Assembly: GCF_000008645.1 (NCBI RefSeq)
Contig: NC_000916.1
Location: forward strand, 1,200,001-1,232,000
Source: Methanothermobacter thermautotrophicus str. Delta H
GTDB lineage: Archaea > Methanobacteriota > Methanobacteria > Methanobacteriales > Methanothermobacteraceae
Length of the DNA: 32,000 bases
Direction: 5' to 3'
This document shows positions 8,411 through 29,360 of the stretch, piece after piece (position 1 is the first letter of the stretch; each line of letters starts with the position of its first letter). A program made the translations under genes and the position numbers. The notes beneath the pieces are model-generated. The model saw only the letters and a program-made list of their open reading frames with translations. It was not told the DNA's origin and made no database searches.

Positions 8411-8926
8411 TTAACCTTCAAAGCACGGAATACAAACCATCCTACCATTCTTTACTCGTGCACGGTGCTCTGAGACGGGTTCACCACACTCTGCGCATAT
8501 GATGGACCCATATATCCTTGCCTCCTCTGGAGGTTTCTCTGAAACATCCCTGACCTCAAAGAGGTCATGTGGATCCATTTCAAGTATCTTCTCTGTCAGT
8601 TCAGCCCTGTCCGTAACCCCGAGTTCCTTCATGAGCTGATCCATTGGTTTTTTAAGTGATATCCTGATTCCATCGCCTGTTTTCCTGTTGAAGAATGTGT
8701 AAACATGTTTTCCGTAATCCCTGAATATCAGGTTGCCCTTTCCAAAGGTGCACCCAGTCATGAACTGGATGGCGTCTATGCTGCAGCTGTCATTCTCAAC
8801 AACCGCCACTATCTCCTCATCCTCTGACCTTCCAAATCTTTCAGCTACGATCTCACCGACCTTGTATCCGAGGGCAGTGCCGGCACAGGAGTGACCGTGA
8901 AATCCAACTATATCCTCATAATCCAT
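8411..8926 (-). CDS. FmdE-family protein with C-terminal zinc ribbon (cytoplasmic)
   Basis: It has the FmdE signature [17 protein letters not shown] and a C-terminal CAECGEP...CIPC. The ORF track starts at 9007. The ATG at 8926 is preceded by a strong GGGAGGGTGAT site at 4 nt, whereas 9007 has none. Confidence 0.8.
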
Positions 8927-9095
8927 AACTATCACCCTCCCTATCTCTGGATCACGATTCAGATATAGGTGATGGTGGTAAACCATGTTTTCATTATTAC
9001 CTTTCATTTAAATCAACAAAAAAATGTAATAATATATCTTTATATTGTAAGAAGAGATTAGTTAACACGAAACAAATTAGAGGGAGGTGAAATGG

Positions 9096-11888
9096 ATGAG
9101 GAGATTATTCATGGTTTCAGTTCTTTTCCTTCTGGCCATGCTTACTGGTTCAGTGGCAGCTGCAGACAACGCAACCTGCGAGGTTGGTGTCCTTGTCAGC
9201 TACCAGTACAGCGATGATAACGGTAGGATCAATCCGACCCTCGAAATCACGGATTCAGGTACAGGCATAGAATACAACCGGACCTACGACCCATCCAGTG
9301 GTTATACAAAGCTGATCTTCCAGCATTCAAACATAAGCGCGGCAAACCTTACACTGACTGTGAGGGCACCGGGCTACGTTACCGTCGAGAGAAGGTTAAA
9401 CCTCACACCGAACCCCATGGACCCCCGGCACACCGGGTACTATGCAAGCATAAACCTTGTTCTAAATGCAACCGAACCATACCGGATCGGTAGAGAGTTG
9501 ACAGAAAAAGCAGATAAGCTCCTGAACTTCACAGGGAAGGGAGAAGTTCTTGTTATAACAACAGCCGGCCTTGTGAAGTACCATAATATGACTACAGAGG
9601 ATGTCCTGGAGGGAATACTTAACAGGGGAGGTGGCCTGATAAGCTACGGCAGAGCTAACCTCCTTACAGTCCGAAAAACAGCCACAGATCCTCTGTGTAC
9701 GGCTTTCATAGTGAGGAAGGGTAACGATCTTCTCATGGCATTCTACAGGAACACCACACTGGTGTACCTTGGAACGGTGTCCCAGAACATGAGCTCTGCC
9801 CAGTGGAACAACCTTACATCAAAGCTGGGGGATGATGCCTTCCCCTTCGCAAGCCTTGCAAATGCATGGGCAGCTGGAGCACCAGCAGATCTGCTCAAAC
9901 AGGCCGCATTCCATGGACACATGTGCCTGGGTACCATAAGCGGATATGCCATGAGTAAAACCATCTACATGTACTATCCACCTATCCAGGACTGGTCCAC
10001 CGGTTCACCCATAGAGATAACCAGCTACGTCACCATAGGTGTTCCCGGCGGCTCAGACGATGATGCCCTCATACTTGCACTCGATAACACCCCCGGGAAG
10101 AGGTCATACCTCGGCTTCGATACAACCGGTGCCGGTGCAGAGGACAGTATGGTGGGCTTCATAAGGTGGAACTCAAGGACAAACACCGGTACCCTTGTGG
10201 TCATGAAGTTCGACCAGCAGGCACTCATAGATACCTACAAAAGGGAGACCGGAGTATCAATGGTTCAGGAACTCAAATTCAATGCCTGGCTCGTTAAAAA
10301 GGTCACAGAGAACCCTGCCTCCATTGTAACTATCGTTAAGGAACTCGACAACCTGACAGCCGACCAGTACTACTACCTGGCAGGAAGGGAGGTCAACTAC
10401 AACCAGGTAAATGAGACCCATGGACTGGACATGAACTACATAAACAGCCTCAATCTGCCAAACGCCACCAGGGCAAATGTGAATGCAACATGGAATCCTG
10501 TGAGCTATGCTGAGCTCCGTGAAATCGGTAGAAGGGCCGCTGAAATGGCTAAGGAGATATTCCTGGCTGAGAGAGGAATAAACCTTGAAAGGGACGATCT
10601 CAATGTAGCTGTCCTCACATCAGCCGGTTACGTCTACCTGAACGGCACCCCGACCGATGGCTGCTACGACGGAATATTCAGCGTTCTTGGTTCAAGGCTA
10701 AGCAGGAAAAACCTTCTGCCAGTCCACAGCCCATTCTACAAACCACTATGGTTCACCTTCGTCTTGAAGGGTGCTGATGGGAAAACACTGGACTCAGTGC
10801 ATATAACCTACAATCCACTGACAGGTGAACTGAGTGCCGGAGCAGGGCCGGATGGTTCACGGGTTAACGATATAGGTCCCGCAGCCCTCAATAACGCGAC
10901 AAGGGATAACGCCAATTCCGCGATATTCGGTAGCTCCTACTTCAGCATTGAGAGCATAGCCAATGCCTGGAAGTACAGCATCCCCTATGACCAGCTGGTA
11001 ACCTTCCTGTTCCACAACCATGTCTGTCCGGGTGTCCAGCCAGGATTCTTCATCACCGAGTACGCCCTTGAGAACTATCCACTTGCAGCCGGCCAGCAGT
11101 ATCAGTGGTTCGGGACAAGCATATACTGCAAGGATGACGCCCTCCTCTACCTCATGGGTGTTAGTCCCGGTACCGGGACCTACTTCGCCAAGAGGGTCCT
11201 CCAGGAGGAACTCGAATCCCCGATGGTACCCGGTGGAAGTGAAGAGGGAATACTCATAGTCTGGGATCCAGTTAAGAAGGTTGGTAAGGCTGTGATGATA
11301 AGCTTCAGGTGGCCAGAGTTCGACCTCAGCGACTGCACCACAAGGAACGCCATGTTCGAGAAGTGGGCTGCCGCCTTTATAATGCTCTACAGTGGCCAAA
11401 CACCATCCTACATGACGTCCCCAATGGTCCTCACAAAGGAGGTTGAGAAGTGGATAACCGAGGACGAACTCAGGGTGATACAGAGCGGTGCAAACGGTAA
11501 CCCCCTGGCATACCTGCGTTCAATACCTGCACGAAACCTTGAGGACCTTATACCTGTGAACAACGGTGGAACACCAGTTAACACAGGAGGAAACCAGGGA
11601 GGTTCCCATGGTGGTTCAACTGGAGGTGTTCCTTCAGGTTCAGCTTTCACAGGACATGCAGGTTATTCACCGGGTGTGGATACTGCGGCTTCACCTGCAG
11701 AGGTGGGCGCTGCATCCTCAGTGTCAGAGGAGCCTGCATCAGCCCCTGCAAAGGCCTATGAGGTTAAGAATGTGACCTCAGGTGCCAGGGGCGGTGACTC
11801 CTCATGGTACGTCTACGGTATCGTGGGTGTCCTTGTTGCCGCTGGTCTTGTGGCCTTCGGATTCCTCAGGGGCGGAGCAGGAAAATAA
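9096..11888 (+). CDS. Secreted, C-terminally membrane-anchored protein with two FmdE-like domains
   Basis: GGGAGGTGA lies 5 nt upstream of the ATG at 9096. There is a signal peptide (MRRLFMVSVLFLLAMLTGSVAAADN) and a PEGA/Ig-like N-terminal module (LTVRAPGYVTVERRLNL). Two FmdE-type HxH-x-C-x-G motifs are present: FHGHMCLG at nt 9909-9932 and FHNHVCPG at nt 11010-11033. Many N-x-S/T sequons occur. The C-terminus has a G/S-rich linker, KAYEV, and a TM helix. Confidence 0.8.
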   Translation: MRRLFMVSVLFLLAMLTGSVAAADNATCEVGVLVSYQYSDDNGRINPTLEITDSGTGIEYNRTYDPSSGYTKLIFQHSNISAANLTLTVRAPGYVTVERRLNLTPNPMDPRHTGYYASINLVLNATEPYRIGRELTEKADKLLNFTGKGEVLVITTAGLVKYHNMTTEDVLEGILNRGGGLISYGRANLLTVRKTATDPLCTAFIVRKGNDLLMAFYRNTTLVYLGTVSQNMSSAQWNNLTSKLGDDAFPFASLANAWAAGAPADLLKQAAFHGHMCLGTISGYAMSKTIYMYYPPIQDWSTGSPIEITSYVTIGVPGGSDDDALILALDNTPGKRSYLGFDTTGAGAEDSMVGFIRWNSRTNTGTLVVMKFDQQALIDTYKRETGVSMVQELKFNAWLVKKVTENPASIVTIVKELDNLTADQYYYLAGREVNYNQVNETHGLDMNYINSLNLPNATRANVNATWNPVSYAELREIGRRAAEMAKEIFLAERGINLERDDLNVAVLTSAGYVYLNGTPTDGCYDGIFSVLGSRLSRKNLLPVHSPFYKPLWFTFVLKGADGKTLDSVHITYNPLTGELSAGAGPDGSRVNDIGPAALNNATRDNANSAIFGSSYFSIESIANAWKYSIPYDQLVTFLFHNHVCPGVQPGFFITEYALENYPLAAGQQYQWFGTSIYCKDDALLYLMGVSPGTGTYFAKRVLQEELESPMVPGGSEEGILIVWDPVKKVGKAVMISFRWPEFDLSDCTTRNAMFEKWAAAFIMLYSGQTPSYMTSPMVLTKEVEKWITEDELRVIQSGANGNPLAYLRSIPARNLEDLIPVNNGGTPVNTGGNQGGSHGGSTGGVPSGSAFTGHAGYSPGVDTAASPAEVGAASSVSEEPASAPAKAYEVKNVTSGARGGDSSWYVYGIVGVLVAAGLVAFGFLRGGAGK

Positions 11889-13977: not shown

Positions 13978-14676
13978 ATGCATGGAAAACTCATCGGTGT
14001 GGGTGTGGGTCCCGGGGACAGTGAACTTCTGACCCTCAGGGCTGTGAATGTACTCAGATCTGTTCCAGTTATATGCGCACCCCGTTCATCATCTGAGAGG
14101 GAGAGCATAGCCCTCTCAATCGTTGAAGATATCCTCACTGAACGCAGGGACGGCTGCAGAATACTTGACCCTGTGTTTCCAATGACTGATGACCGGGATG
14201 AACTTGAAAGTCACTGGGATTCTGCGGCCAGAATGGTTGCAGCTGAACTTGAGGATGGACGGGATGTTGCCTTCATAACACTGGGTGATCCATCCATCTA
14301 CAGTACCTTCAGTTACCTCCAGCAGCGCATTGAGGATATGGGCTTTAAGACAGAGATGGTGCCAGGAGTCACCTCCTTCACGGCATGTGCAGCCACCGCT
14401 GGCAGAACCCTCGTTGAGGGTGATGAGATCCTCCTTGTGGTGCCCCGGGTTGATGATCGGTTTGAGAGGGTGCTCAGGGATGTGGATGCCTGTGTGATCA
14501 TGAAGACGTCACGCCATGGCAGGAGGGCCATGGAGGTTGTGGAGTCTGATCCCCGCGGAAAGGATGTTGTATCTGTGGCAAACTGCAGCATGGATGACGA
14601 GGTCGTTGAAAGGGGATTTGCCTCCGGTGGAGGGTATCTTGCAACAACCCTTGTGAGGTTCAGGGAGCAATCCTGA
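13978..14676 (+). CDS. cbiL: Cobalt-factor II / precorrin-2 C20-methyltransferase
   Basis: 232-aa ORF with tetrapyrrole methylase motifs GVGVGPGDSELLTLRA and ITLGDPSIYSTF. Confidence 0.85.
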   Translation: MHGKLIGVGVGPGDSELLTLRAVNVLRSVPVICAPRSSSERESIALSIVEDILTERRDGCRILDPVFPMTDDRDELESHWDSAARMVAAELEDGRDVAFITLGDPSIYSTFSYLQQRIEDMGFKTEMVPGVTSFTACAATAGRTLVEGDEILLVVPRVDDRFERVLRDVDACVIMKTSRHGRRAMEVVESDPRGKDVVSVANCSMDDEVVERGFASGGGYLATTLVRFREQS

Positions 14677-15586: not shown

Positions 15587-16801
15587 ATGAAGGCCAGAGC
15601 AGAGAAGATAGCAGATGGATTATACTGGACTGGTGTCCTTGACTGGGACATCAGAAACTACCACGGATACACACTTCAGGGGACAACCTACAACGCCTAC
15701 CTTGTATTCGGAGATGAAGGTGTGGCGCTGATTGACAACTCATATCCAGGGACCTTCCAGGAGCTCATGGCAAGGATGGAGGATGCATTCAACCGTGAGG
15801 GAAGAGAGATGAGAGTGGACTTCATAGTCCAGAACCATGTTGAAAGGGACCACAGCGGAGTGCTGGTGGAACTTCACAGGAGGTTCCCTGAGGCAGAGAT
15901 CCACTGCACAGAAGTTGCCGTGGAGGGACTGCTCAAGCATTACCCGGCCCTTGAGGGCACAGAGTTCCGCACAGTGAAGACCGGGGATTCCATCGACCTC
16001 GGAGGAAGGACCCTCACCTTCCTTGAGGCACCCCTGCTCCACTGGCCAGACAGCATGTTCACCTTCCTTGATACCGGCATACTGTTCTCAAACGACGCCT
16101 TTGGACAGCACCTCTGCTATCCACAGCGCCTCGACACCGAAATACCCGAATACATACTCATGGATGCTGCCAAAAAATTCTATGCGAACCTCATAACACC
16201 CCTATCAAAGCTTGTGCTCAGGAAGTTCGATGAGGTGAAGGAACTCGGCCTCCTTGATAAGATAGGGATGATAGCGCCCTCCCATGGCCAGATATGGACC
16301 GAACCCATGAAGATAATAGAAGCATACACCGCCTGGGCCACAGGTAAGGTGAAGAAGAAGGTCACCGTAATCTATGATACGATGCACCACTCCACAGCCA
16401 TGATGGCCCATGCAATAGCAGAGGGGGCCATGAGCGAGGGGGCTGATGTGAGGGTCTACTACCTCCATGAGGACGACCGCAGCGAGATCGTGAAGGACAT
16501 ACTTGACAGTCACGCCATTGCCCTCGGAGCACCCGCAATCTACGATGAACCCTACCCGAGCGTTGGAGACCTCCTGATGTACCTCCGTGGTCTGAAGTTC
16601 AACAGGACCGGGCAGAGGAGGGCCATGGTATTCGGGTCAATGGGTGGCAGGGGAGGTGCCACCGGGACCATGCAGAAACTCCTTGCGGATGCTGGATTCG
16701 ATGTCATGGAGGCGGATGAAATCTACTACGTCCCGAACAATGAGGAACTCGATGCATGCTTCGAGGCTGGAAGAAGGCTTGCAGGTGATCTCAATGAATG
16801 A
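15587..16801 (+). CDS. fpaA: F420H2 oxidase, flavodiiron protein A
   Basis: It has the metallo-beta-lactamase-like diiron motif HVERDHSG and a C-terminal flavodoxin-like domain ([23 protein letters not shown]). A GGTGAT site precedes the ATG at 15587. The ORF-track start at 15572 is probably too long. Confidence 0.92.
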
Positions 16802-17207
16802 AAACATCACCGGTGTCTGCAGGGGCACCGAACTTGAGAATGTTGTGGATGCAAACTTCAGGGGAGAGTGCAGTGAGGTCGGTATCTACCTTGCAATGGC
16901 AAGACAGGCCCAGCGTGAGGGCCTCCCCGAGGTTGCAGAGGCCTTAAGAAGAATAGCCCTTGAGGAAGCTGCCCATGCAGCCCGCTTTGCAGAGCTAAAC
17001 GGTGTGATCAGGGAAAACCTCAGGGAAAACCTTGAGATGATGCTTGAGGGGGAGGAGGCGGCTAACAGGGAGAAACGTGAGGCAGCCCTCAGGGCAAGGG
17101 AATGCGGTGTTGATGAGGCCCATGACTTCTTTGATGAGAGCTCAAGGGACGAGGGAAGGCATGCTGCCATGCTGAGGGGACTCCTCCAGAGGTACTTCCA
17201 GGGATAA
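16794..17207 (+). CDS. rlp: Rubrerythrin-like diiron four-helix-bundle protein lacking the rubredoxin domain
   Basis: Two E-x-x-H motifs are present (EEAAH, DEGRH) plus upstream Glu-containing helices. The ATG at 16794 follows a GGTGATC site and overlaps the fpaA stop by 8 nt. The longer ORF-track start at 16644 lies inside fpaA. Confidence 0.8.
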
Positions 17208-22918: not shown

Positions 22919-24904
22919 TCACCTCCATATCGTTAATTGATGAATGCCTGGACTCAATAGCCGAGTAGGGTGCCGGCAGTGTATATGATGAAGGAGGCTA
23001 TCCAGGCCACGAACACTGAGTATAACGGTGAGAAGAGGGCCCACCTCTTGCCTTACTCCTTCTTTATATAATATCAGTGTCGCCAGGCAGGGTGTATAGA
23101 GCAGCACGAATACCATGAACGACAGAGCCTCCAGTGGTGTGAAGGCGCCCTGTATGCTTGCTGCGATATTAGCTGCCCCGTGGACCGTTCCGAAGGTGCT
23201 TATGACAAGCTCCTTTGCCGCGAAACCAGATAGAATTGCGACCGCGGACTGCCAGTCACCGAATCCCAGGGGATGGAATATGGGTGCCATGATGGAGCCC
23301 AGGGTCCCGAGTATGGACGAGGAAACATTTCCACCCGGGAACCCTGAAAGGAACCATATGATCACCGAACCTGCAAATATTATGGTCCCGGCCTTCTTTA
23401 TGAACTGGATGCCTCTGTGGTACGTGTGAATCAGGAGAGTCCTGGGCCTCGGAAGCCTGTATGGTGGAAGCTCCATCAGGAAGAGGAAACCTTCACCCAT
23501 GACCACTTCACCCAGCAGACGGGCGGTTATGATCGCCACTGCAATTCCCAGGATGTAGAGGAAAAATATGACCCATCCCTGATAGATGAGGGGGAAGAGG
23601 GCTGACGTGAAGAGCACGTAGACAGGGAGCCTGGCACTGCATGACATGAAGGGTATCATGAGGCTTGTGAGAATCCTCTCCCTCTCAGATCCTATGGTCC
23701 TTGTTGCCATTACCCCCGGGACACAGCACCCGAAGCCAAGCATCATGGGGATGAATGACCTGCCGCTTAGACCCGCCACTGAATTCATTACACGATCCAT
23801 GACAAAGGCTGCCCTTGCCAGGTACCCTGAATCCTCAAGGAAGGTGAGGAGGAGGAAGAGTATGAAGATGTTCGGTGTGAAGACGAGGACCGATCCAACA
23901 CCTCCTATCACACCATCTGCCAGGAGGGACCCTGCAGCTGAGTCTCCAAGGGCGCCCTGAACTGCTCCTGCAAGGTGGGAAACACCAGCATCAATCAGCT
24001 CTGTAAGTGGAGCCCCTGCAGTGAAGGTGAGCTGGAAGATCAGCCACATCACCCCCAGGAGAATCGGGAGCCCCAAGTACCTGTTAAGTACAGCGCGATC
24101 TATAAGTTCAGAGACCGTTACCCTGTCAAGGGAGGGTCTCGTGAGGGACCTCTCCAGGAGTCCCTCTATGAGGCCGTACCTTGCATCTGACACCAGGATG
24201 TCCGCATCAGCAGAGTGCTCCTCCTCAAGGATCCTTCTGATCCTCTCAAATTCCTTGATGAGGTCCTCACCAACCATTGAGGCAACCCTTTTATCCCCTT
24301 CAAGAAGTTTTATTATGATCCATTCAGCTGGAAAATCTGCCTCAACGTCTTCAAGAAGTTCCCTGAATTCCTTAATAGCATCTGACCTCAAAAATTCATA
24401 TCTGATCTGTGGAGGGTTACTATTCACCTGTCTTATGGCTGCTTCAAGCAATTCATCCTGATTTCCTTCAATGGCCTCCACCTTTATGACCGGCACCCCC
24501 AGCAGTTCCTCAAGTCTCTTCTCATCAAGCCTGTATCCCTTCCTCTCTGATTCACGGTTGAGGTTCACTGCGATGATGGTGTTGAGGCCGAACTCGAGGA
24601 TCTGAAGTGTGAGGTAGAGGTTCCTCTCAAGATTGGATGCATCAACAACACTGATTATGAGGTCCGGTCTCTCATCAAGGAGATAATCAACGACCACCTC
24701 CTCCTCGGGAGATCCCGCTGTTAGACTGTAGGTTCCTGGGAGATCTGTAATTTCAATATCATTTTCCCTGAAGTTCAGGTATCCTGTTTTCTTTTCAACA
24801 GTCTTCCCTGGCCAGTTTCCAACGTGCTGATTGAGTCCCGTAAGGTTATTGAAGAGGGTGCTCTTTCCAACATTCGGGTTTCCTGCAAGTGCTATTCTGA
24901 GCAT
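22919..24904 (-). CDS. feoB: Ferrous iron transporter FeoB (C-terminus apparently frameshifted near 23053)
   Basis: The G-domain motifs are GNPNVGKST and DLPGTYSL, followed by a long polytopic membrane domain. The canonical last helix is encoded in the +1 frame and ends at 22954 (see findings). Confidence 0.9.
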   Translation of the reverse strand: MLRIALAGNPNVGKSTLFNNLTGLNQHVGNWPGKTVEKKTGYLNFRENDIEITDLPGTYSLTAGSPEEEVVVDYLLDERPDLIISVVDASNLERNLYLTLQILEFGLNTIIAVNLNRESERKGYRLDEKRLEELLGVPVIKVEAIEGNQDELLEAAIRQVNSNPPQIRYEFLRSDAIKEFRELLEDVEADFPAEWIIIKLLEGDKRVASMVGEDLIKEFERIRRILEEEHSADADILVSDARYGLIEGLLERSLTRPSLDRVTVSELIDRAVLNRYLGLPILLGVMWLIFQLTFTAGAPLTELIDAGVSHLAGAVQGALGDSAAGSLLADGVIGGVGSVLVFTPNIFILFLLLTFLEDSGYLARAAFVMDRVMNSVAGLSGRSFIPMMLGFGCCVPGVMATRTIGSERERILTSLMIPFMSCSARLPVYVLFTSALFPLIYQGWVIFFLYILGIAVAIITARLLGEVVMGEGFLFLMELPPYRLPRPRTLLIHTYHRGIQFIKKAGTIIFAGSVIIWFLSGFPGGNVSSSILGTLGSIMAPIFHPLGFGDWQSAVAILSGFAAKELVISTFGTVHGAANIAASIQGAFTPLEALSFMVFVLLYTPCLATLILYKEGVRQEVGPLLTVILSVRGLDSLLHHIHCRHPTRLLSPGIHQLTIWR

Positions 24905-24906
24905 TT

Positions 24907-25134
24907 TTAATCCCTTACCCCTATCCTCGATGCTTCTCCCTTACGGATGGAAAAGGGATGGCCCTTCACCCTAACCTTCAGGGGGTCTCCCAGGGGTGCA
25001 GAGTTCTCAACAGTGACCCTGGATCCCCTTAATAGCCCCATAACAGTTAATCTTTGCCTTATATCCCCTGGAAGGTTAACGGATGTCACAGTCACAGTCG
25101 TGCCTTCCTTTATTCTGTCGAGTGTTGTTTCCAT
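24907..25134 (-). CDS. feoA: FeoA
   Basis: 75-aa SH3-like FeoA pattern (RQRLTVMGLLRGSRVTV). Its stop lies 2 nt before the feoB start. Confidence 0.85.
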   Translation of the reverse strand: METTLDRIKEGTTVTVTSVNLPGDIRQRLTVMGLLRGSRVTVENSAPLGDPLKVRVKGHPFSIRKGEASRIGVRD

Positions 25135-25143
25135 GATACCACC

Positions 25144-25205
25144 TTTAGGAAATCCTAAAATTTAGTTACACCTAAATCATATATAAAGTTTTAGGTTTAC
25201 CTAAA
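25144..25205. promoter_or_regulatory. feoAB promoter with three 16-bp palindromes flanking the TATA box
   Basis: The palindromes are TTTAGGAaaTCCTAAA (25144-25159), TTTAGTTacACCTAAA (25161-25176) and TTTAGGTttACCTAAA (25190-25205). The TATA element CTTTATATA on the minus strand lies at about 25180-25188. Confidence 0.7.
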
Positions 25206-25218
25206 CCATGTTGCAGTT

Positions 25219-25229
25219 AAAAAATAAAA
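25219..25229 (-). terminator. Oligo-T tract (TTTTATTTTTT on the minus strand) after the cobN-like stop
   Basis: Read directly from the sequence. It lies 9 nt downstream of the TGA at 25238-25240. Confidence 0.5.
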
Positions 25230-25237
25230 GAATAGCC

Positions 25238-28200
25238 TCAGTATCTTCCCTGGAAGAAGTAACCCACTCCAAGGAGACACACAAGGCTTATAACACCAAT
25301 TATAGCATATATGGGAGTCTGAGTGCTTGAAGAGGTGCTGTTGGTTGATGCTGCAACCTCATAGGCCTTTCCAGAACCTTCAGAAGCTCCAGAGTTTTCT
25401 GAAACCTCTGATGACTCTAAAGCCTCATCTGACGATGAACCTGATGCTCCGCCTGCATTCCCTGCGGAACCTGAAGAAGGTTCACCTGTCTCACCGATTC
25501 CATCCCCATTCACTGAGCCCGGCTGTGAATCCCCAGAGCCAGGAACATCAATGGACTTCCCTGTGGCTGCAGCCATTGCAGCCGCAAATTTTCTGAGGGC
25601 CGCCTGGTTGAGGGATGATAGCTTCACCACCCAGCTGTTGAAGACCATGTTGGCACATGTGTGGTGACAGCAGACAACACCATACTCATTAACCGCCGCG
25701 ATGTACTCATCGGCAAGCCTCTGCAGTGTAGCTGAATCTGTGCTCCAGAGGCCCCTGCGGCTGGCCTCAAGGAGCCAGGCTACCGTTGAGGCATAGGAGT
25801 AGGGCTGAAGACTCTTAAATCTGCTGCTTACCTGAGGATCAAAGACATAGGTCTCTGCAACCTTCTGCCACATCCAGTCCTGGACCAGATCAGGGGTGAC
25901 TGCACTCCAGCCGAATAGATGTCCTATCTCCTTGGATATCTGATGAGCACCTGAGAATCCCTGATTCAGCATTCCCTCAATCCATTTCGGGTTGTAGGTC
26001 CTTGTTCTGAGTTCTGCTGCAATGAAATCTGCCAGTGTCTCCATTCGTGGTGTGAACCTTGTATTGGCGATGTATGAGGCAACATTCCTTCCTGAAATGG
26101 TCCTTGCAGCCATCGTGAGACCCCCAAGGTACTGGTAAACGTCGTCGTTGTCAAGAACACCGTAAACACTGTCCCTGACCTGTACTGTTGCATCCACATT
26201 TGATAGCTGCTTCATGAAGACCTCCTTTGCATCAATGGCGTATATGTCCTTTCCATAGATGAATCCCATATGATTCAGGTAGGTTTCAAGGAGCTGTGAC
26301 TGATTATCCCACTTTGCAGTTGATTCAACCACTTCAGGTAGCCCGGTACCGTAACTTCCAGGGGCACTGCCAAATATCCTTGCACCGGCAAGTGTCTCCG
26401 CTGCCTGTAAACCCCTGGCAGTATAATTCGCCAGGTCTGCAAGGTAATGTTTCCTGAGGTAGTTGCCTTCCACCGGTTCATCCAGTTTCATGACAAGCCT
26501 TATCGCCTCATCCATCCTGTCGATACTGTAGGCAAATGTGTCTCTGAACAGTCCACTGATAGTGACCAGAACATCGATTCTGGGCCTTCCAAGCACTTCC
26601 AGGGGTGTTACACTTATTCCTGTGAATCTTCCTGATTTATCCCATACCGGTTCAGCTCCGATGAGTCTCAGAACCATTGCTATTGTCTGACCACTGGTCC
26701 TCATGGTCTCAATTGCCCAGAGAACCACCCCAACAGATTCGGGATATCTGCCATTCCTTGAAAGGTAATCTGCAATGAGGTCATCTGCCATCTTCTTACC
26801 GATCTCCCATGCAGCCCTATCAGGTGCAAGTCTGGGGTCAAAGGAATAGGAATTCCTTCCCGTCGGCAGGAGGTCGGGTATCCTTATGGGATCAGCCCCC
26901 CGACCCGGTTCAACAAAACGTCCCTCAAGGGCCCTCAGAAGGTTTGTGATCTCCTGGTCAGTGGCAAGTTTCTCTCTTACGGCATTCCGGAACTCTGTGT
27001 TATTCCTCGATGCTGGGTCAAAGCTCACAATTGCCTCCACCATTGCATCAAGGAGCTCCCCGCTAAGGGGTTCCCCGAAGACATGTAACCCGTAGGGTAT
27101 CAGTGTTGCTGATAGCTCATCAAGCCTGTGCTCAATTCGATCAAGGGCCTCTTCAAAGGAAGCATTGAGGTCAATGTTAAGTTCCCTGTGAAGGTCCAGT
27201 TTAACCGTGAGATTTCTGATTTCCTCAGCGATTATCAGCTTTCTCTGGGGATCCTCAGACGTATGGTAAAGGTTAATTTTGTGTTCAAGTTCAGATAGAT
27301 CCCCGTAAAGTTCACTTACCACCATAGGGGGGATGTTATGGTTTATGAGGACCGCGTACCCACGCCTCTTTGCCTGAGTCCCCTCACCCGGGTTGTTTAC
27401 GATGTAGGGGTAGATATGTGGCAGGTCACCTATCATCACGTCGGGCCAGTCAAGGGATGATAGACCAACTGATTTCCCTGGTAACCATTCGAGGGTTCCG
27501 TGTGTACCAAGATGTATAACTGCGTTGAAGTTTTTCTGAAGCCAGAGATAGAATGCAAGGTACTGGTGGTGCGGTGGGAGTGTTGTTGAATGTATGAGGT
27601 CAGCTGCATCCTCGCCGAATCCGCGCATTGGCTGGGGGCCGAGGAATACGTTGCCAAGCATAACACCCGGGATCACTATGCTGCCATTGTAGACCATGAC
27701 GTTTCCAGGGGCAGGTCCCCATGTCGCTGTTATGTTATTTCTCAGGGTTTCTGGCAGTAGACTGAACCAGTTAAGGTATTCAGATACTGGAACTGTTACT
27801 GCGCCGGCCCTGACAACCTTCTCAAGTTCACCCGGAGCCCATGAACCCACATTCAGGCCCGGCCCGAGGAGTATGTTTATCACCTCTGCAGTGGATTTTT
27901 CCTCAACATTGTAGCCAGCACTCCTTAGCGCCCTCAGTATGTTGCTGATGCTCTCTGGTACGTTGAGGTAACTCGCACTGATACCATCCTTACCCCCACC
28001 AATGTTGTAGTATATAAGGGCTATCTTCTTCTCCGCATTTGGAAGTTCCCTTAACTTTATCCAGTTGATCAATCTCTCTGTGAGCCTCTCTATCCTTTCA
28101 GGAATCGGAACATAGTATGTATAACGCAGCCCTGTCTGAGGGTCTGTCTCCTCAACTCCGCCGCCGATCATGACTGGCTCTATCCTTCCGTCGATCTCTG

Positions 28201-29227
28201 GAAGTGCTATCTGCCAGTACACCTCAGATGAAAGTCCTGATATGCTCTCGTTCCATGCCCTGAGATTTGATGCATAGACCGCAGCAATTGCGGGTAAATC
28301 AAGTTCCGTGAGGATTGCTGTGGAGTTCAGGGGATCACCGCTGTATAAATTGAAGCCCATGCATGTTATGAGACCGCTGATCCTGGGAGTCCTGTTACCA
28401 TCCAGGAAGAAGTTCTCAATAAGGTTCCGCTTTGTAGCTGTGTCAGCTGCAAAGCCAAGGATCACATTGTAACCCTTTCTCTCAAGGCTCTCAAGTATGG
28501 CGGTGTGCATTCTCATGTCGCTTCCACGGTAGTATGTATCGAATGTGATTATGCCCACCCATGGTTTTCCTGCCCTGTAGTGGCCGCTCTGAACATACCA
28601 GGAGTAGTAACGGTCCCATGCTGTGAACTGTTCGCCGGCGTCGGGGTGATATACAAATGATTTCACCGCGGGAATGGCTGTTACATTCTCCTCATTTTTT
28701 AGCTGCATTCCAGCATCCCTCAGAAGGAGGAGCATCATTCTCCGGAAGTTCTCGGGGCCTCCCTGATCCCAGATGTACTTCACTGTTGCGTTGTCCGCAC
28801 CCACACGGGGATCATCCTTGAATGTGTTGCCGGTTCCTATGGCAATTATTTTGCTGGCCCCCGTAACATTAAGGATTGGATTGACCTTCGCCAGGGTGTT
28901 TGGAGAACTTATCATCTGAATGAGAATCACGTCAGCCTTTCTACCCGCCTCCAGTGCCGCCATGTCTATCTGAGGATCGTTCCTTAGAAGTTCATCGTTT
29001 GTGAACATTGAAAGATTGAATCTGTAGCCGTCCCGTCCTGCAAGTTTATAGCCTTCCACTATTGCCTTTGTACTCGAAGTTGACCCTGTGATTATGAGAA
29101 TACTGTAATGGGAAGAATTCTGCTGAATCGCACCCTCTGTGACGTTGCTGCTGTTATCAGCCGCTGAAACACCTCCCGCAAGCATGATTGTCATGAGTAG
29201 AATCACTGGAATAACTGATGTCCTCAA
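25238..29227 (-). CDS. CobN/Mg-chelatase-H-family protein with signal peptide and C-terminal membrane anchor (predicted cell-surface)
   Basis: 1329-aa ORF. The TTG start lies 5 nt after a GGAGGTG site. There is a signal peptide (MRTSVIPVILLMTIMLAGGVSAADN) and the CobN/BchH hallmark HLGTHGTLEWLPGK. Many N-x-S/T sequons occur. The C-terminus has a G/S/E-rich linker, KAYEV, and a TM helix (IYAIIGVISLVCLLGVGYFF). Confidence 0.85.
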   Translation of the reverse strand: MRTSVIPVILLMTIMLAGGVSAADNSSNVTEGAIQQNSSHYSILIITGSTSSTKAIVEGYKLAGRDGYRFNLSMFTNDELLRNDPQIDMAALEAGRKADVILIQMISSPNTLAKVNPILNVTGASKIIAIGTGNTFKDDPRVGADNATVKYIWDQGGPENFRRMMLLLLRDAGMQLKNEENVTAIPAVKSFVYHPDAGEQFTAWDRYYSWYVQSGHYRAGKPWVGIITFDTYYRGSDMRMHTAILESLERKGYNVILGFAADTATKRNLIENFFLDGNRTPRISGLITCMGFNLYSGDPLNSTAILTELDLPAIAAVYASNLRAWNESISGLSSEVYWQIALPEIDGRIEPVMIGGGVEETDPQTGLRYTYYVPIPERIERLTERLINWIKLRELPNAEKKIALIYYNIGGGKDGISASYLNVPESISNILRALRSAGYNVEEKSTAEVINILLGPGLNVGSWAPGELEKVVRAGAVTVPVSEYLNWFSLLPETLRNNITATWGPAPGNVMVYNGSIVIPGVMLGNVFLGPQPMRGFGEDAADLIHSTTLPPHHQYLAFYLWLQKNFNAVIHLGTHGTLEWLPGKSVGLSSLDWPDVMIGDLPHIYPYIVNNPGEGTQAKRRGYAVLINHNIPPMVVSELYGDLSELEHKINLYHTSEDPQRKLIIAEEIRNLTVKLDLHRELNIDLNASFEEALDRIEHRLDELSATLIPYGLHVFGEPLSGELLDAMVEAIVSFDPASRNNTEFRNAVREKLATDQEITNLLRALEGRFVEPGRGADPIRIPDLLPTGRNSYSFDPRLAPDRAAWEIGKKMADDLIADYLSRNGRYPESVGVVLWAIETMRTSGQTIAMVLRLIGAEPVWDKSGRFTGISVTPLEVLGRPRIDVLVTISGLFRDTFAYSIDRMDEAIRLVMKLDEPVEGNYLRKHYLADLANYTARGLQAAETLAGARIFGSAPGSYGTGLPEVVESTAKWDNQSQLLETYLNHMGFIYGKDIYAIDAKEVFMKQLSNVDATVQVRDSVYGVLDNDDVYQYLGGLTMAARTISGRNVASYIANTRFTPRMETLADFIAAELRTRTYNPKWIEGMLNQGFSGAHQISKEIGHLFGWSAVTPDLVQDWMWQKVAETYVFDPQVSSRFKSLQPYSYASTVAWLLEASRRGLWSTDSATLQRLADEYIAAVNEYGVVCCHHTCANMVFNSWVVKLSSLNQAALRKFAAAMAAATGKSIDVPGSGDSQPGSVNGDGIGETGEPSSGSAGNAGGASGSSSDEALESSEVSENSGASEGSGKAYEVAASTNSTSSSTQTPIYAIIGVISLVCLLGVGYFFQGRY

Positions 29228-29360
29228 AATTTCACCTCCATTATACTTTATCTCAAATCATCTTTGCTTTAATAAAATATAAAATTTTCTTTAATGAAAA
29301 TAACATTTACTTTAATATAAATCCATAAACTTAAATATACTGATTTATCAATATATCTCC

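Follow-up and report, generated by a model that had tools for sequence, protein, structure and literature searches.

The stretch of DNA analysed here (the window) comprises 32,000 nucleotides of Methanothermobacter thermautotrophicus str. Delta H (contig NC_000916.1, positions 1,200,001 to 1,232,000). Its minus strand carries an open reading frame at 25238–29227 for a CobN-like protein of 1329 amino acids (aa), whose score against the Pfam family PF02514 (CobN-Mg_chel) is 1139 bits, compared to a gathering cut-off of 24.5. Contig CP064324.1 encodes an identical protein, and the top named match, at 99% identity, is CobN of Methanothermobacter sp. EMTCatA1. The gene order is moeA (moeA2), M50 protease, DUF169, the CobN-like gene, feoA and feoB (feoB2); from this order, from Kaster et al. 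2011 (PMC3087415) and from the UniProt order D9PYM1-D9PYM6, the window gene can be recognised as orthologous to cobN3 of M. marburgensis (MTBMA_c17530, 146 kDa) and to MTH1363, and we call it cobN3 below. An earlier note on this DNA had seen here an exported, anchored member of the CobN/ChlH family; that observation is confirmed, and both the topology and the family placement are solid. The gene and its parts are as follows.

25238–29227, minus strand: coding sequence of the 1329-aa extracytoplasmic CobN-like protein (open reading frame list, Pfam, identity to EMTCatA1 CobN, synteny)
29232–29239, minus strand: Shine–Dalgarno sequence GGAGGTGA, separated by 4 nt from the TTG start; the same sequence precedes the orthologue at locus L090, and the upstream region is conserved with L007
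29162–29227, minus strand: predicted signal peptide, residues 1–22, MRTSVIPVILLMTIMLAGGVSA, followed by ADN; read from the sequence and shared by orthologues as well as by homologues from Methanobacterium and Firmicutes
27473–27514, minus strand: HLGTHGTLEWLPGK, residues 572–585, the superfamily catalytic motif (H572, H576 = HmuS H538, E580); by alignment invariant or nearly so in 28 clade members
27362–27397, minus strand: NNPGEGTQAKRR, containing E615, which shares alignment columns with HmuS E577 and CobN E593 (Co2+ site)
26120–26158, minus strand: VLDNDDVYQYLGG, CobN-type acidic loop (D1026, D1028, D1029); the HmuS counterpart is LSLDH(1209)VYE(1212)FMGG
25649–25672, minus strand: CCHHTCAN, motif of the C-terminal extension (core C-x4-C-x-N), found in the extracytoplasmic clade only; HmuS has CSGFVCDN
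25370–25561, minus strand: G/S/E-rich low-complexity linker, residues 1223–1286 (64 residues), read from the sequence
25253–25369, minus strand: KAYEV motif, Ser-rich spacer and transmembrane helix (IYAIIGVISLVCLLGVGYFF), a conserved C-terminal module (alignment, local hidden Markov model (HMM), bacterial homologues)

The earlier note had itself named a true start downstream of the signal peptide as one finding that would overturn its view. Such a start can be rejected: besides the Shine–Dalgarno sequence, there is an in-frame stop eight codons upstream of the TTG with no start codon in between, the orthologue in CP042937.1 (L090) has an ATG at the equivalent position behind an identical Shine–Dalgarno sequence, and the N-terminal MR[TRK]SVIP... 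is kept across orthologues of 62–99% identity. The signal peptide, with its basic n-region, 17-residue h-region and V-S-A at positions −3 to −1, looks like that of the Sec type, in line with the classical signal peptide that the note had described. The richness in N-x-S/T sequons was likewise borne out: the protein has 18, against 9.0 ± 2.8 expected from its composition (z = 3.3), a number reached by 0.1% of shuffled sequences, and it is probably N-glycosylated. The excess recurs in archaeal paralogues, and not in bacterial homologues or in cytoplasmic proteins of the window. In CP042937.1 (L090, 3456–7450) the cobN3 orthologue is frameshifted after ~179 codons, leaving a head fragment and a 1149-aa remainder without signal peptide; feoAB adjacency is kept at this locus and DUF169 is missing, and several metagenome contigs show the same frameshifted state.

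At the other end of the protein, the G/S/E linker, the KAYEV motif (residues 1287–1291) and a single transmembrane helix (1306–1325) are all present as described, followed by a short basic tail, QGRY. The tail had been taken as the mark of a surface-anchored archaeal glycoprotein; the membrane anchor holds, but the tail is no archaeal glycoprotein anchor: it is a module specific to the family and occurs in bacterial homologues too, including HmuS. A signal peptide or hydrophobic N-terminus and a KxYE–transmembrane tail occur together in ~90 of 120 database homologues, both archaeal and bacterial (tail-bearing examples come from Methanobacterium, Methanococcus, Firmicutes and Deltaproteobacteria), and the rest are typical cytoplasmic CobN or ChlH proteins with neither feature. 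An archaeosortase signal of the PGF- or PEF-CTERM type was considered and rejected, with NCBIfam matching the tail only through the long-CobN model itself. The term 'extracellular' used in the note is right in that the protein is predicted to lie outside the cytoplasm; extracytoplasmic and membrane-tethered would describe it better.

We placed the protein within its superfamily by phylogeny, sequence models and structure. In a neighbour-joining tree of 53 sequences, calculated without bootstrap values, all homologues with a signal peptide and an anchor form one clade, with HmuS inside it and the cytoplasmic CobN, ChlH and BchH outside; the window protein falls among sequences from Methanobacteriales, whose sister group is from Firmicutes. 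Members of the clade have in common a C-terminal extension, C-x4-C-x-N followed by KxYE and the transmembrane anchor, which is not in CobN or ChlH, and C1186, C1191 and N1193 are invariant in 28 clade sequences. By sequence, CobN, ChlH and the HmuS haem dechelatase (9D26) score similarly in the PDB, with CobN at the top (547 bits). All NCBIfam CobN equivalogs are missed: TIGR02257 scores 706.8 against a cut-off of 822, NF004645 989 against 1619, and the remaining CobN models likewise fall short. The BchH equivalog TIGR02025 is barely passed (832.7 against 829); methanogens make no bacteriochlorophyll, and this carries a risk of automatic mis-annotation. An AlphaFold2 model of residues 24–1215 (predicted local distance difference test 89.8, predicted TM-score 0.88) was compared with solved structures using Foldseek. 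Its best match is HmuS 9D26 (global TM-score 0.86/0.82, root-mean-square deviation (rmsd) 4.5 Å), with CobN 7C6O at a TM-score of 0.77 (rmsd 5.9 Å) and ChlH at 0.74 (rmsd 11–12 Å). The model thus predicts the six-domain head–neck–body fold, at TM-scores of 0.74–0.86 over ~1150–1330 alignment columns. Within the class I (CobN/ChlH) chelatase superfamily, the window protein thus belongs, on solid grounds, to the BtuS/HmuS branch.

An exported CobN-like class is not unprecedented, as HmuS and BtuS are already known. HmuS of B. thetaiotaomicron is membrane-bound and periplasm-facing, with a transmembrane helix at each end; haem is turned by this enzyme into protoporphyrin IX and Fe(II) independently of ATP, in a reaction that depends on NADH or another reductant and for which His538 is essential, and its archaeal homologues are numerous and of unclear use (Nath et al., EMBO J 2025, PMC12583661). 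This is experimental backing for the reverse-chelatase role that the earlier note mentioned for CobN-like proteins in bacterial haem-uptake loci. The name BtuS traces back to Rodionov 2003, where it denoted a third CobN type, predicted to be exported, membrane-attached and involved in metalloporphyrin salvage; in B. fragilis, growth on iron from haem requires FeoAB together with BtuS1/BtuS2, which are exported and CobN-like, yet the btuS double mutant still dechelates haem (Rocha et al. 2019, PMC6460266). Methanosarcina homologues, namely proteins of M. barkeri, carry the BtuS label (PMC10846266).

The active site is where the window protein parts from HmuS. For residue mapping we used the HmuS sequence printed in the appendix of Nath et al. 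(PMC12583661). The CobN/BchH hallmark claimed in the note is present as HLGTHGTLEWLPGK, and the conserved catalytic set comprises H572, H576, E580, E615, D1026, D1028 and D1029; across the 28 clade members H572 is at least 90% conserved and the other catalytic and metal residues are invariant. In the alignment, H572, H576, E580, E615 and D1028 match H534, H538, E577 and D1208 of HmuS and H554, E593 and D1100 of CobN. The last three residues bind two Co2+ in Brucella CobN (bioRxiv 10.64898/2026.07.21.739949), and their equivalents in the window protein are H576, E615 and D1028/D1029. The acidic loop VLDNDDVYQYLGG (pattern LD[NS]DDxYQ[YF]xGG) matches LLDSDDYYQFEGG of CobN 9FPC, whereas HmuS, BchH and ChlH each have a His in this loop where the window protein has the CobN-type LDNDDVYQYLGG. 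The LSLDHxxEFMGG motif of HmuS is absent, with His1209 replaced by Asp1029 and Glu1212 by Gln1032 in the alignment. The HmuS site-1 ligand His254 (HGR) is also absent, its column being occupied by Ser296, and so is the Met-rich insertion, a 116-residue span that aligns to 10 residues of the window protein. The column of HmuS Met79 holds Ile106, and as an invariant Met105 lies one column away, this ligand is ambiguous. Since the loop matches CobN and the equivalent residues surround two Co2+ in the Brucella enzyme, the residues that carry the chemistry are all kept and belong to the cobalt/corrin type, not to the His-containing porphyrin type of HmuS and BchH. The window protein is therefore not HmuS in the strict sense.

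Directly downstream lies the iron-transport unit feoAB, with the following features.

25219–25230, minus strand: oligo-T run directly after the cobN3 stop codon, a probable archaeal terminator (sequence)
25144–25205, minus strand: feoA promoter, three TTTAGG-N4-CCTAAA palindromes (DtxR/IdeR-like) around a TATA box at 25180–25188 (pattern scan)
22919–25134, minus strand: feoA (24907–25134) and feoB (22919–24904), a separate transcription unit (Pfam)

The palindrome pattern matches five times in the window against 0.15 expected, all at the feoA promoter and nowhere else, and no iron boxes lie upstream of cobN3. That feoAB is separately promoted and under iron-box control, as the earlier note held, agrees with its own TATA box, its three palindromes and the oligo-T end of cobN3. 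The same three facts, a terminator after cobN3, a promoter of its own for feoA and iron boxes only there, place cobN3 outside iron control. The iron side of the iron or metal scavenging role that the note drew from this adjacency is thus weak: the link is positional only, and the HmuS haem residues are missing. Of the substrates it had listed, corrinoids and free metal are now favoured, and the haem-iron reading of 'porphyrinoids' is weak. An iron connection is nonetheless possible, as feoAB recurs near homologues more often than expected by chance, at ~4–5 independent loci against fewer than 1 by a rough estimate.

A conserved partner module emerged from the gene neighbourhoods, which we surveyed with local HMMs at 77 genome loci of homologues. 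MotA/ExbB and DUF2149 genes lie within 3 kb on the same strand at 52 of the 77, and DUF2162 joins them in archaea, Firmicutes and Deltaproteobacteria. The arrangement is that of hmuS-T-U-V: CobN-like, DUF2162 (HmuT, permease), MotA/ExbB (HmuU) and DUF2149 (HmuV). The transmembrane helix of DUF2149 begins with a conserved Asp (consensus 'NlfDv'), and the family gave no ExbD or TolR match against solved structures; the analogy to ExbD, which we offer tentatively, rests only on this residue and on gene order. In the closest archaeal homologues (Methanobacterium, 50–53% identical) the module stands immediately downstream. The window contains no MotA/ExbB, DUF2149, DUF2162 or receptor genes; in four complete Methanothermobacter genomes the module adjoins a 1642–1706-aa paralogue, to which the window protein is 34–36% identical. 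An hmuSTUV-type core thus exists in Methanobacteriales and Firmicutes, lineages without an outer membrane, and therefore cannot serve there solely to energise a TonB-dependent receptor.

This bears on two further statements of the note. It had found no AAA+/vWA partners, and indeed no ChlI/ChlD/CobS/CobT-like gene is found within the window; what it overlooked is the conserved partner module of the clade. It had also proposed independence from ATP. With the chelatase body predicted to be on the outer side of the membrane, AAA+/ATP partners could not reach it; independence from energy altogether is not established, given the conserved MotA/ExbB–DUF2149–DUF2162 module.

CbiM-family genes, which belong to Co/Ni energy-coupling factor transporters, also occur near archaeal homologues: in Methanobacteriaceae they accompany CobN-like and stator genes at L008 (3174–9183), L018 (2362–2985) and L011 and L013 (~16266–16950). 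At L008 feoBA is added to the cluster, and these genes make up small metal-uptake islands.

A further link to cobalt comes from the sister Firmicutes clade, where the DUF2162–MotA/ExbB–DUF2149–CobN-like genes of every sampled locus (L005/L006, L012 with two in tandem, L015, L016 and L017) are directly preceded by a cobalamin riboswitch on their own strand; L021, in Deferribacteres, has a riboswitch as well. The closest bacterial homologues sampled, 42–53% identical to the window protein, all stand directly behind such riboswitches. At 13 more distant Gram-negative loci scanned with Rfam, the few riboswitches present (L051, L053 and L073) all belonged to neighbouring or divergent operons, and an nhmmer model built from the Firmicutes matches found little elsewhere. 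The Rfam scan of the window returned a single tRNA and no riboswitch; to our knowledge, archaea do not use cobalamin riboswitches. One secreted metagenome protein of 1948 aa (P0085) fuses a Peripla_BP_2 domain (BtuF-like, PF01497), CbiZ (adenosylcobinamide amidohydrolase) and a CobN-like part with the same anchored tail, a fusion that hints at corrinoid remodelling outside the membrane.

The KAYEV tail itself is not confined to CobN-like proteins, and the window holds a second bearer.

9087–11888, plus strand: secreted double-FmdE-domain protein, 933 aa, with an AKAYEV–transmembrane tail (domain scan, sequon count, local HMM)

This protein has HGHMC and HNHVC motifs, 18 sequons (z = 4.3), a signal peptide, a G/S linker, AKAYEV, a transmembrane helix and a basic tail. 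In M. marburgensis its orthologue is c17360, and MTBMA_c10580 is 53% identical to it. At Methanobacterium loci, FmdE-like open reading frames with a KAYEV-type tail precede CobN-like genes. The tail is thus a module on two unrelated ectodomains; being common to both, it suggests that the tail serves for docking and is more than an anchor, and the 933-aa protein is probably another client of this membrane system. A profile of the C-terminal module (A3), run against 5.8 billion proteins, gave only four short and uninformative matches, and the range of its clients is known from the local loci only.

Published whole-cell proteomes of M. marburgensis under standard, Ni-limited, Fe-limited and H2/CO2-limited growth (three quantitative tables in the supplements of PMC12350162) offer a view of these genes in action. 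Under Fe limitation FeoA rises ~450-fold and FeoB2 ~30-fold, and under Ni limitation CobN1 rises ~300-fold, the 'Transporter' MTBMA_c10530 ~40-fold and c10580 ~300-fold, with c10540 going from undetectable to detectable (PMC12350162). The FmdE-like c17360 falls under both limitations. We find that at L086 (CP001710) c10530, the 'Transporter' of the Ni-limitation figure in Nature 2025, is MotA/ExbB, c10540 is DUF2162 and c10580 is a 964-aa FmdE-domain protein, and that c10550-c10570 (L086, 3142–8070) represent a single exported CobN-like gene broken into three pieces (195 + 849 + 604 aa) in strain Marburg but intact (1642–1643 aa) in CP042937 and CP043480. The c10550-c10570 'cobaltochelatase subunit-like' genes were once proposed as candidates for the F430 nickel chelatase. 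With c10530, c10540 and c10580 of this cluster all induced by Ni limitation, the stator cluster is nickel-starvation machinery in Methanothermobacter; this interpretation is ours and not that of PMC12350162.

Set against known systems, the window protein resembles HmuS of B. thetaiotaomicron and P. gingivalis (PDB 9D26, 9P4S), with which it shares a superfamily and extracytoplasmic clade, in its predicted outward-facing body, hydrophobic segments at both ends, lack of an AAA+ partner, C-x4-C-x-N extension, KxYE/KxxKEE-like motif and transmembrane anchor and, at the family level, its hmuSTUV-type neighbours. Besides the active-site replacements, it differs in its cleavable-looking signal peptide where HmuS has an N-terminal transmembrane helix, in its enrichment in sequons, in having CCHHTC in place of CSGFVC, and in its setting: there is no hmuY/hmuR, no outer membrane and no adjacent stator gene, and the host makes no haem. 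With the BtuS family it shares membership of an exported CobN-like group apart from CobN and ChlH. The sister bacterial clade of the window protein is controlled by B12 riboswitches, but in this archaeon no riboswitch or other B12 regulation is visible, and there is no TonB-dependent receptor. The CobN of CobNST (PDB 7C6O, 9UK9, 9FPC) has the same fold, metal-site residues and acidic loop; it is however cytoplasmic, and the CobS/CobT AAA+ motor docks on its domain VI, whereas in the exported window protein domain VI runs into the extension, linker and membrane anchor. Finally, the module is reminiscent of TonB-ExbB-ExbD and TolA-TolQ-TolR, with a MotA/ExbB channel, a partner with a single transmembrane helix and an Asp, and a client with one transmembrane helix and a long low-complexity linker. 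It differs from Ton and Tol in that the CobN-like client would be an enzyme in its own right with a C-terminal anchor, in having no outer-membrane receptor in archaea or Firmicutes, and in DUF2149 having no sequence match to ExbD/TolR; coupling of the client to the channel is our conjecture.

With an active site of the CobN type and the closest bacterial relatives standing behind cobalamin riboswitches, we favour a role for the protein in cobalt or corrinoid acquisition or salvage. From sequence comparison this appears to be the most likely reading, which we put forward tentatively and at somewhat less than an even chance, and we infer the substrate, the direction of the reaction and the coupling to the proton-channel module alike. 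The whole six-domain chelatase body would sit outside the cytoplasmic membrane, beneath the pseudomurein wall, where the active-site cleft could bind Co2+ or handle an external corrinoid, and the metal or product would then be handed to a membrane importer. Energy, if needed, would come from the proton gradient and not from ATP; its source could be the unit of MotA/ExbB, DUF2149 (Asp in the transmembrane helix, ExbD-like) and DUF2162 encoded beside the paralogue in this genus, which the linker–KAYEV–transmembrane tail of the CobN-like protein would engage.

Several points weigh against a cobalt or corrinoid role. We know of no precedent for enzymatic cobalt removal from corrinoids, there are neither stator genes nor a Co transporter among the genes of the window, and the regulatory argument is borrowed by analogy from bacterial relatives of 42–53% identity. 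The clade placement comes from a tree without bootstrap support. The only conserved metal-related neighbour of cobN3 is feoAB, which points to iron and not to cobalt, and feoAB genes are also near homologues in L008 (divergent), L016 (4 kb away, in another operon) and L020 (CobN-like, feoB, dtxR). The frameshifted orthologue means that the function is dispensable in one species, and CobN3 appears in none of the three quantitative proteome tables, reaching only decoy level in the spectral-count table (PMC12350162).

The feoAB neighbourhood would fit the iron reading of the earlier note, which we take as an archaeal HmuS, a dechelatase of haem or another iron-tetrapyrrole that frees Fe2+ outside the membrane for FeoAB. 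In its favour, feoAB is immediately downstream in all Methanothermobacter orthologues, feoAB or feoB-dtxR stands beside homologues in L008 and L020 and near one in L016, haem-iron use in Bacteroides needs FeoAB and BtuS/HmuS (PMC6460266), HmuS is the best structural match, and the 'BtuS' proteins of M. barkeri respond to the Fe/S source (PMC10846266). We consider it unlikely all the same, as His1209, Glu1212, His254 and the Met-rich insertion of HmuS are absent, the terminator and the confinement of iron boxes to the feoA promoter separate the two units, the sister clade is B12-regulated, and in M. marburgensis the response to Fe limitation includes FeoA and FeoB2 but not CobN3; c10580 and c17360, of the same architecture, are readily detected, so that the missing CobN3 cannot be put down to its anchor. 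A component of nickel acquisition, akin to the Ni-induced CobN1/c10580/MotA-ExbB cluster, is quite improbable: whilst Ni limitation does induce the stator cluster and CobN1 and the window encodes a paralogue of c10580, CobN3 was not detected under Ni limitation, the orthologue of the FmdE-like window protein falls, and CobN3 is only 34–36% identical to the stator-linked paralogue.

Perhaps the protein performs no chemistry at all, acting as a surface receptor or store that passes a tetrapyrrole or metal to a transporter; the continued dechelation of haem by B. fragilis btuS mutants (PMC6460266) would allow for this, yet the clade-wide invariance of the superfamily catalytic and metal ligands argues for retained chemistry and makes it improbable. 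We rate as similarly improbable that cobN3 is a largely silent, redundant paralogue heading to decay, as might be suspected from an orthologue that is unquantified in the M. marburgensis proteomes and frameshifted in CP042937.1 and related metagenome contigs, and from a stator-linked paralogue in three pieces in strain Marburg. The window copy is, on the contrary, intact over 1329 codons with every catalytic residue kept, and is 86–99% conserved in other strains together with its Shine–Dalgarno sequence and upstream region. A cytoplasmic biosynthetic chelatase with a mis-called start, inserting Co late for B12 or Ni for F430, is what the database annotation 'cobaltochelatase subunit CobN', the placement of the gene under B12 biosynthesis by Kaster et al. 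(PMC3087415) and the marginal pass of TIGR02025 would imply. It is very improbable in view of the conserved start and signal peptide, the ATG-start orthologue, the C-terminal transmembrane anchor, the failure of all CobN equivalog models and the lack of CobS/T or ChlI/D genes in the window. Moreover, methanogens have an early-insertion B12 pathway with CbiX, and CfbA for F430, which counts against such an enzyme. The annotation 'cobalamin biosynthesis protein N' is very probably wrong, and the genomes of methanogens hold many 'CobN' genes with no place in any biosynthetic pathway.

Beyond a cobalt or corrinoid role for this one protein, we could speculate that exported CobN-like proteins in general are the working end of a Ton-like chelatase machine, driven by the proton-motive force and scavenging Ni, Co or Fe; we regard this as possible, though on the unlikely side. 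The MotA/ExbB and DUF2149 stator and the DUF2162 permease would here take the place of the AAA+/vWA motor, with the stator acting on the domain VI end through the linker–KxYE–transmembrane tail. The window protein would be a trans-acting client, and the tail would couple both CobN-like and double-FmdE-like proteins, in archaea and in single-membrane bacteria. That the module is tied to nickel starvation in Methanothermobacter, and in bacteria to B12 riboswitches, makes for testable hypotheses on the supply of Co, Ni and Fe, metals that limit methanogenesis in digesters and in nature.

Some smaller observations concern the surroundings and relatives of the 933-aa FmdE-like protein. Divergent from its gene, at 8411–9007 on the minus strand, is a small cytoplasmic protein with FmdE and zf-dskA_traR domains, an architecture that recurs in Calderihabitans (L005:4903-5511), immediately before the B12 riboswitch. 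A cbiL-like tetrapyrrole methylase gene of the B12 pathway lies between the two KAYEV-tailed genes, at 13978–14676 on the plus strand, in a synteny that is probably coincidental. Residues 30–100 of c10580 (L086, 63–2957) show a borderline Pfam match to an Shr-like haemoglobin-interacting domain (E = 2.6e-4; 21.9 against 22.3 bits).

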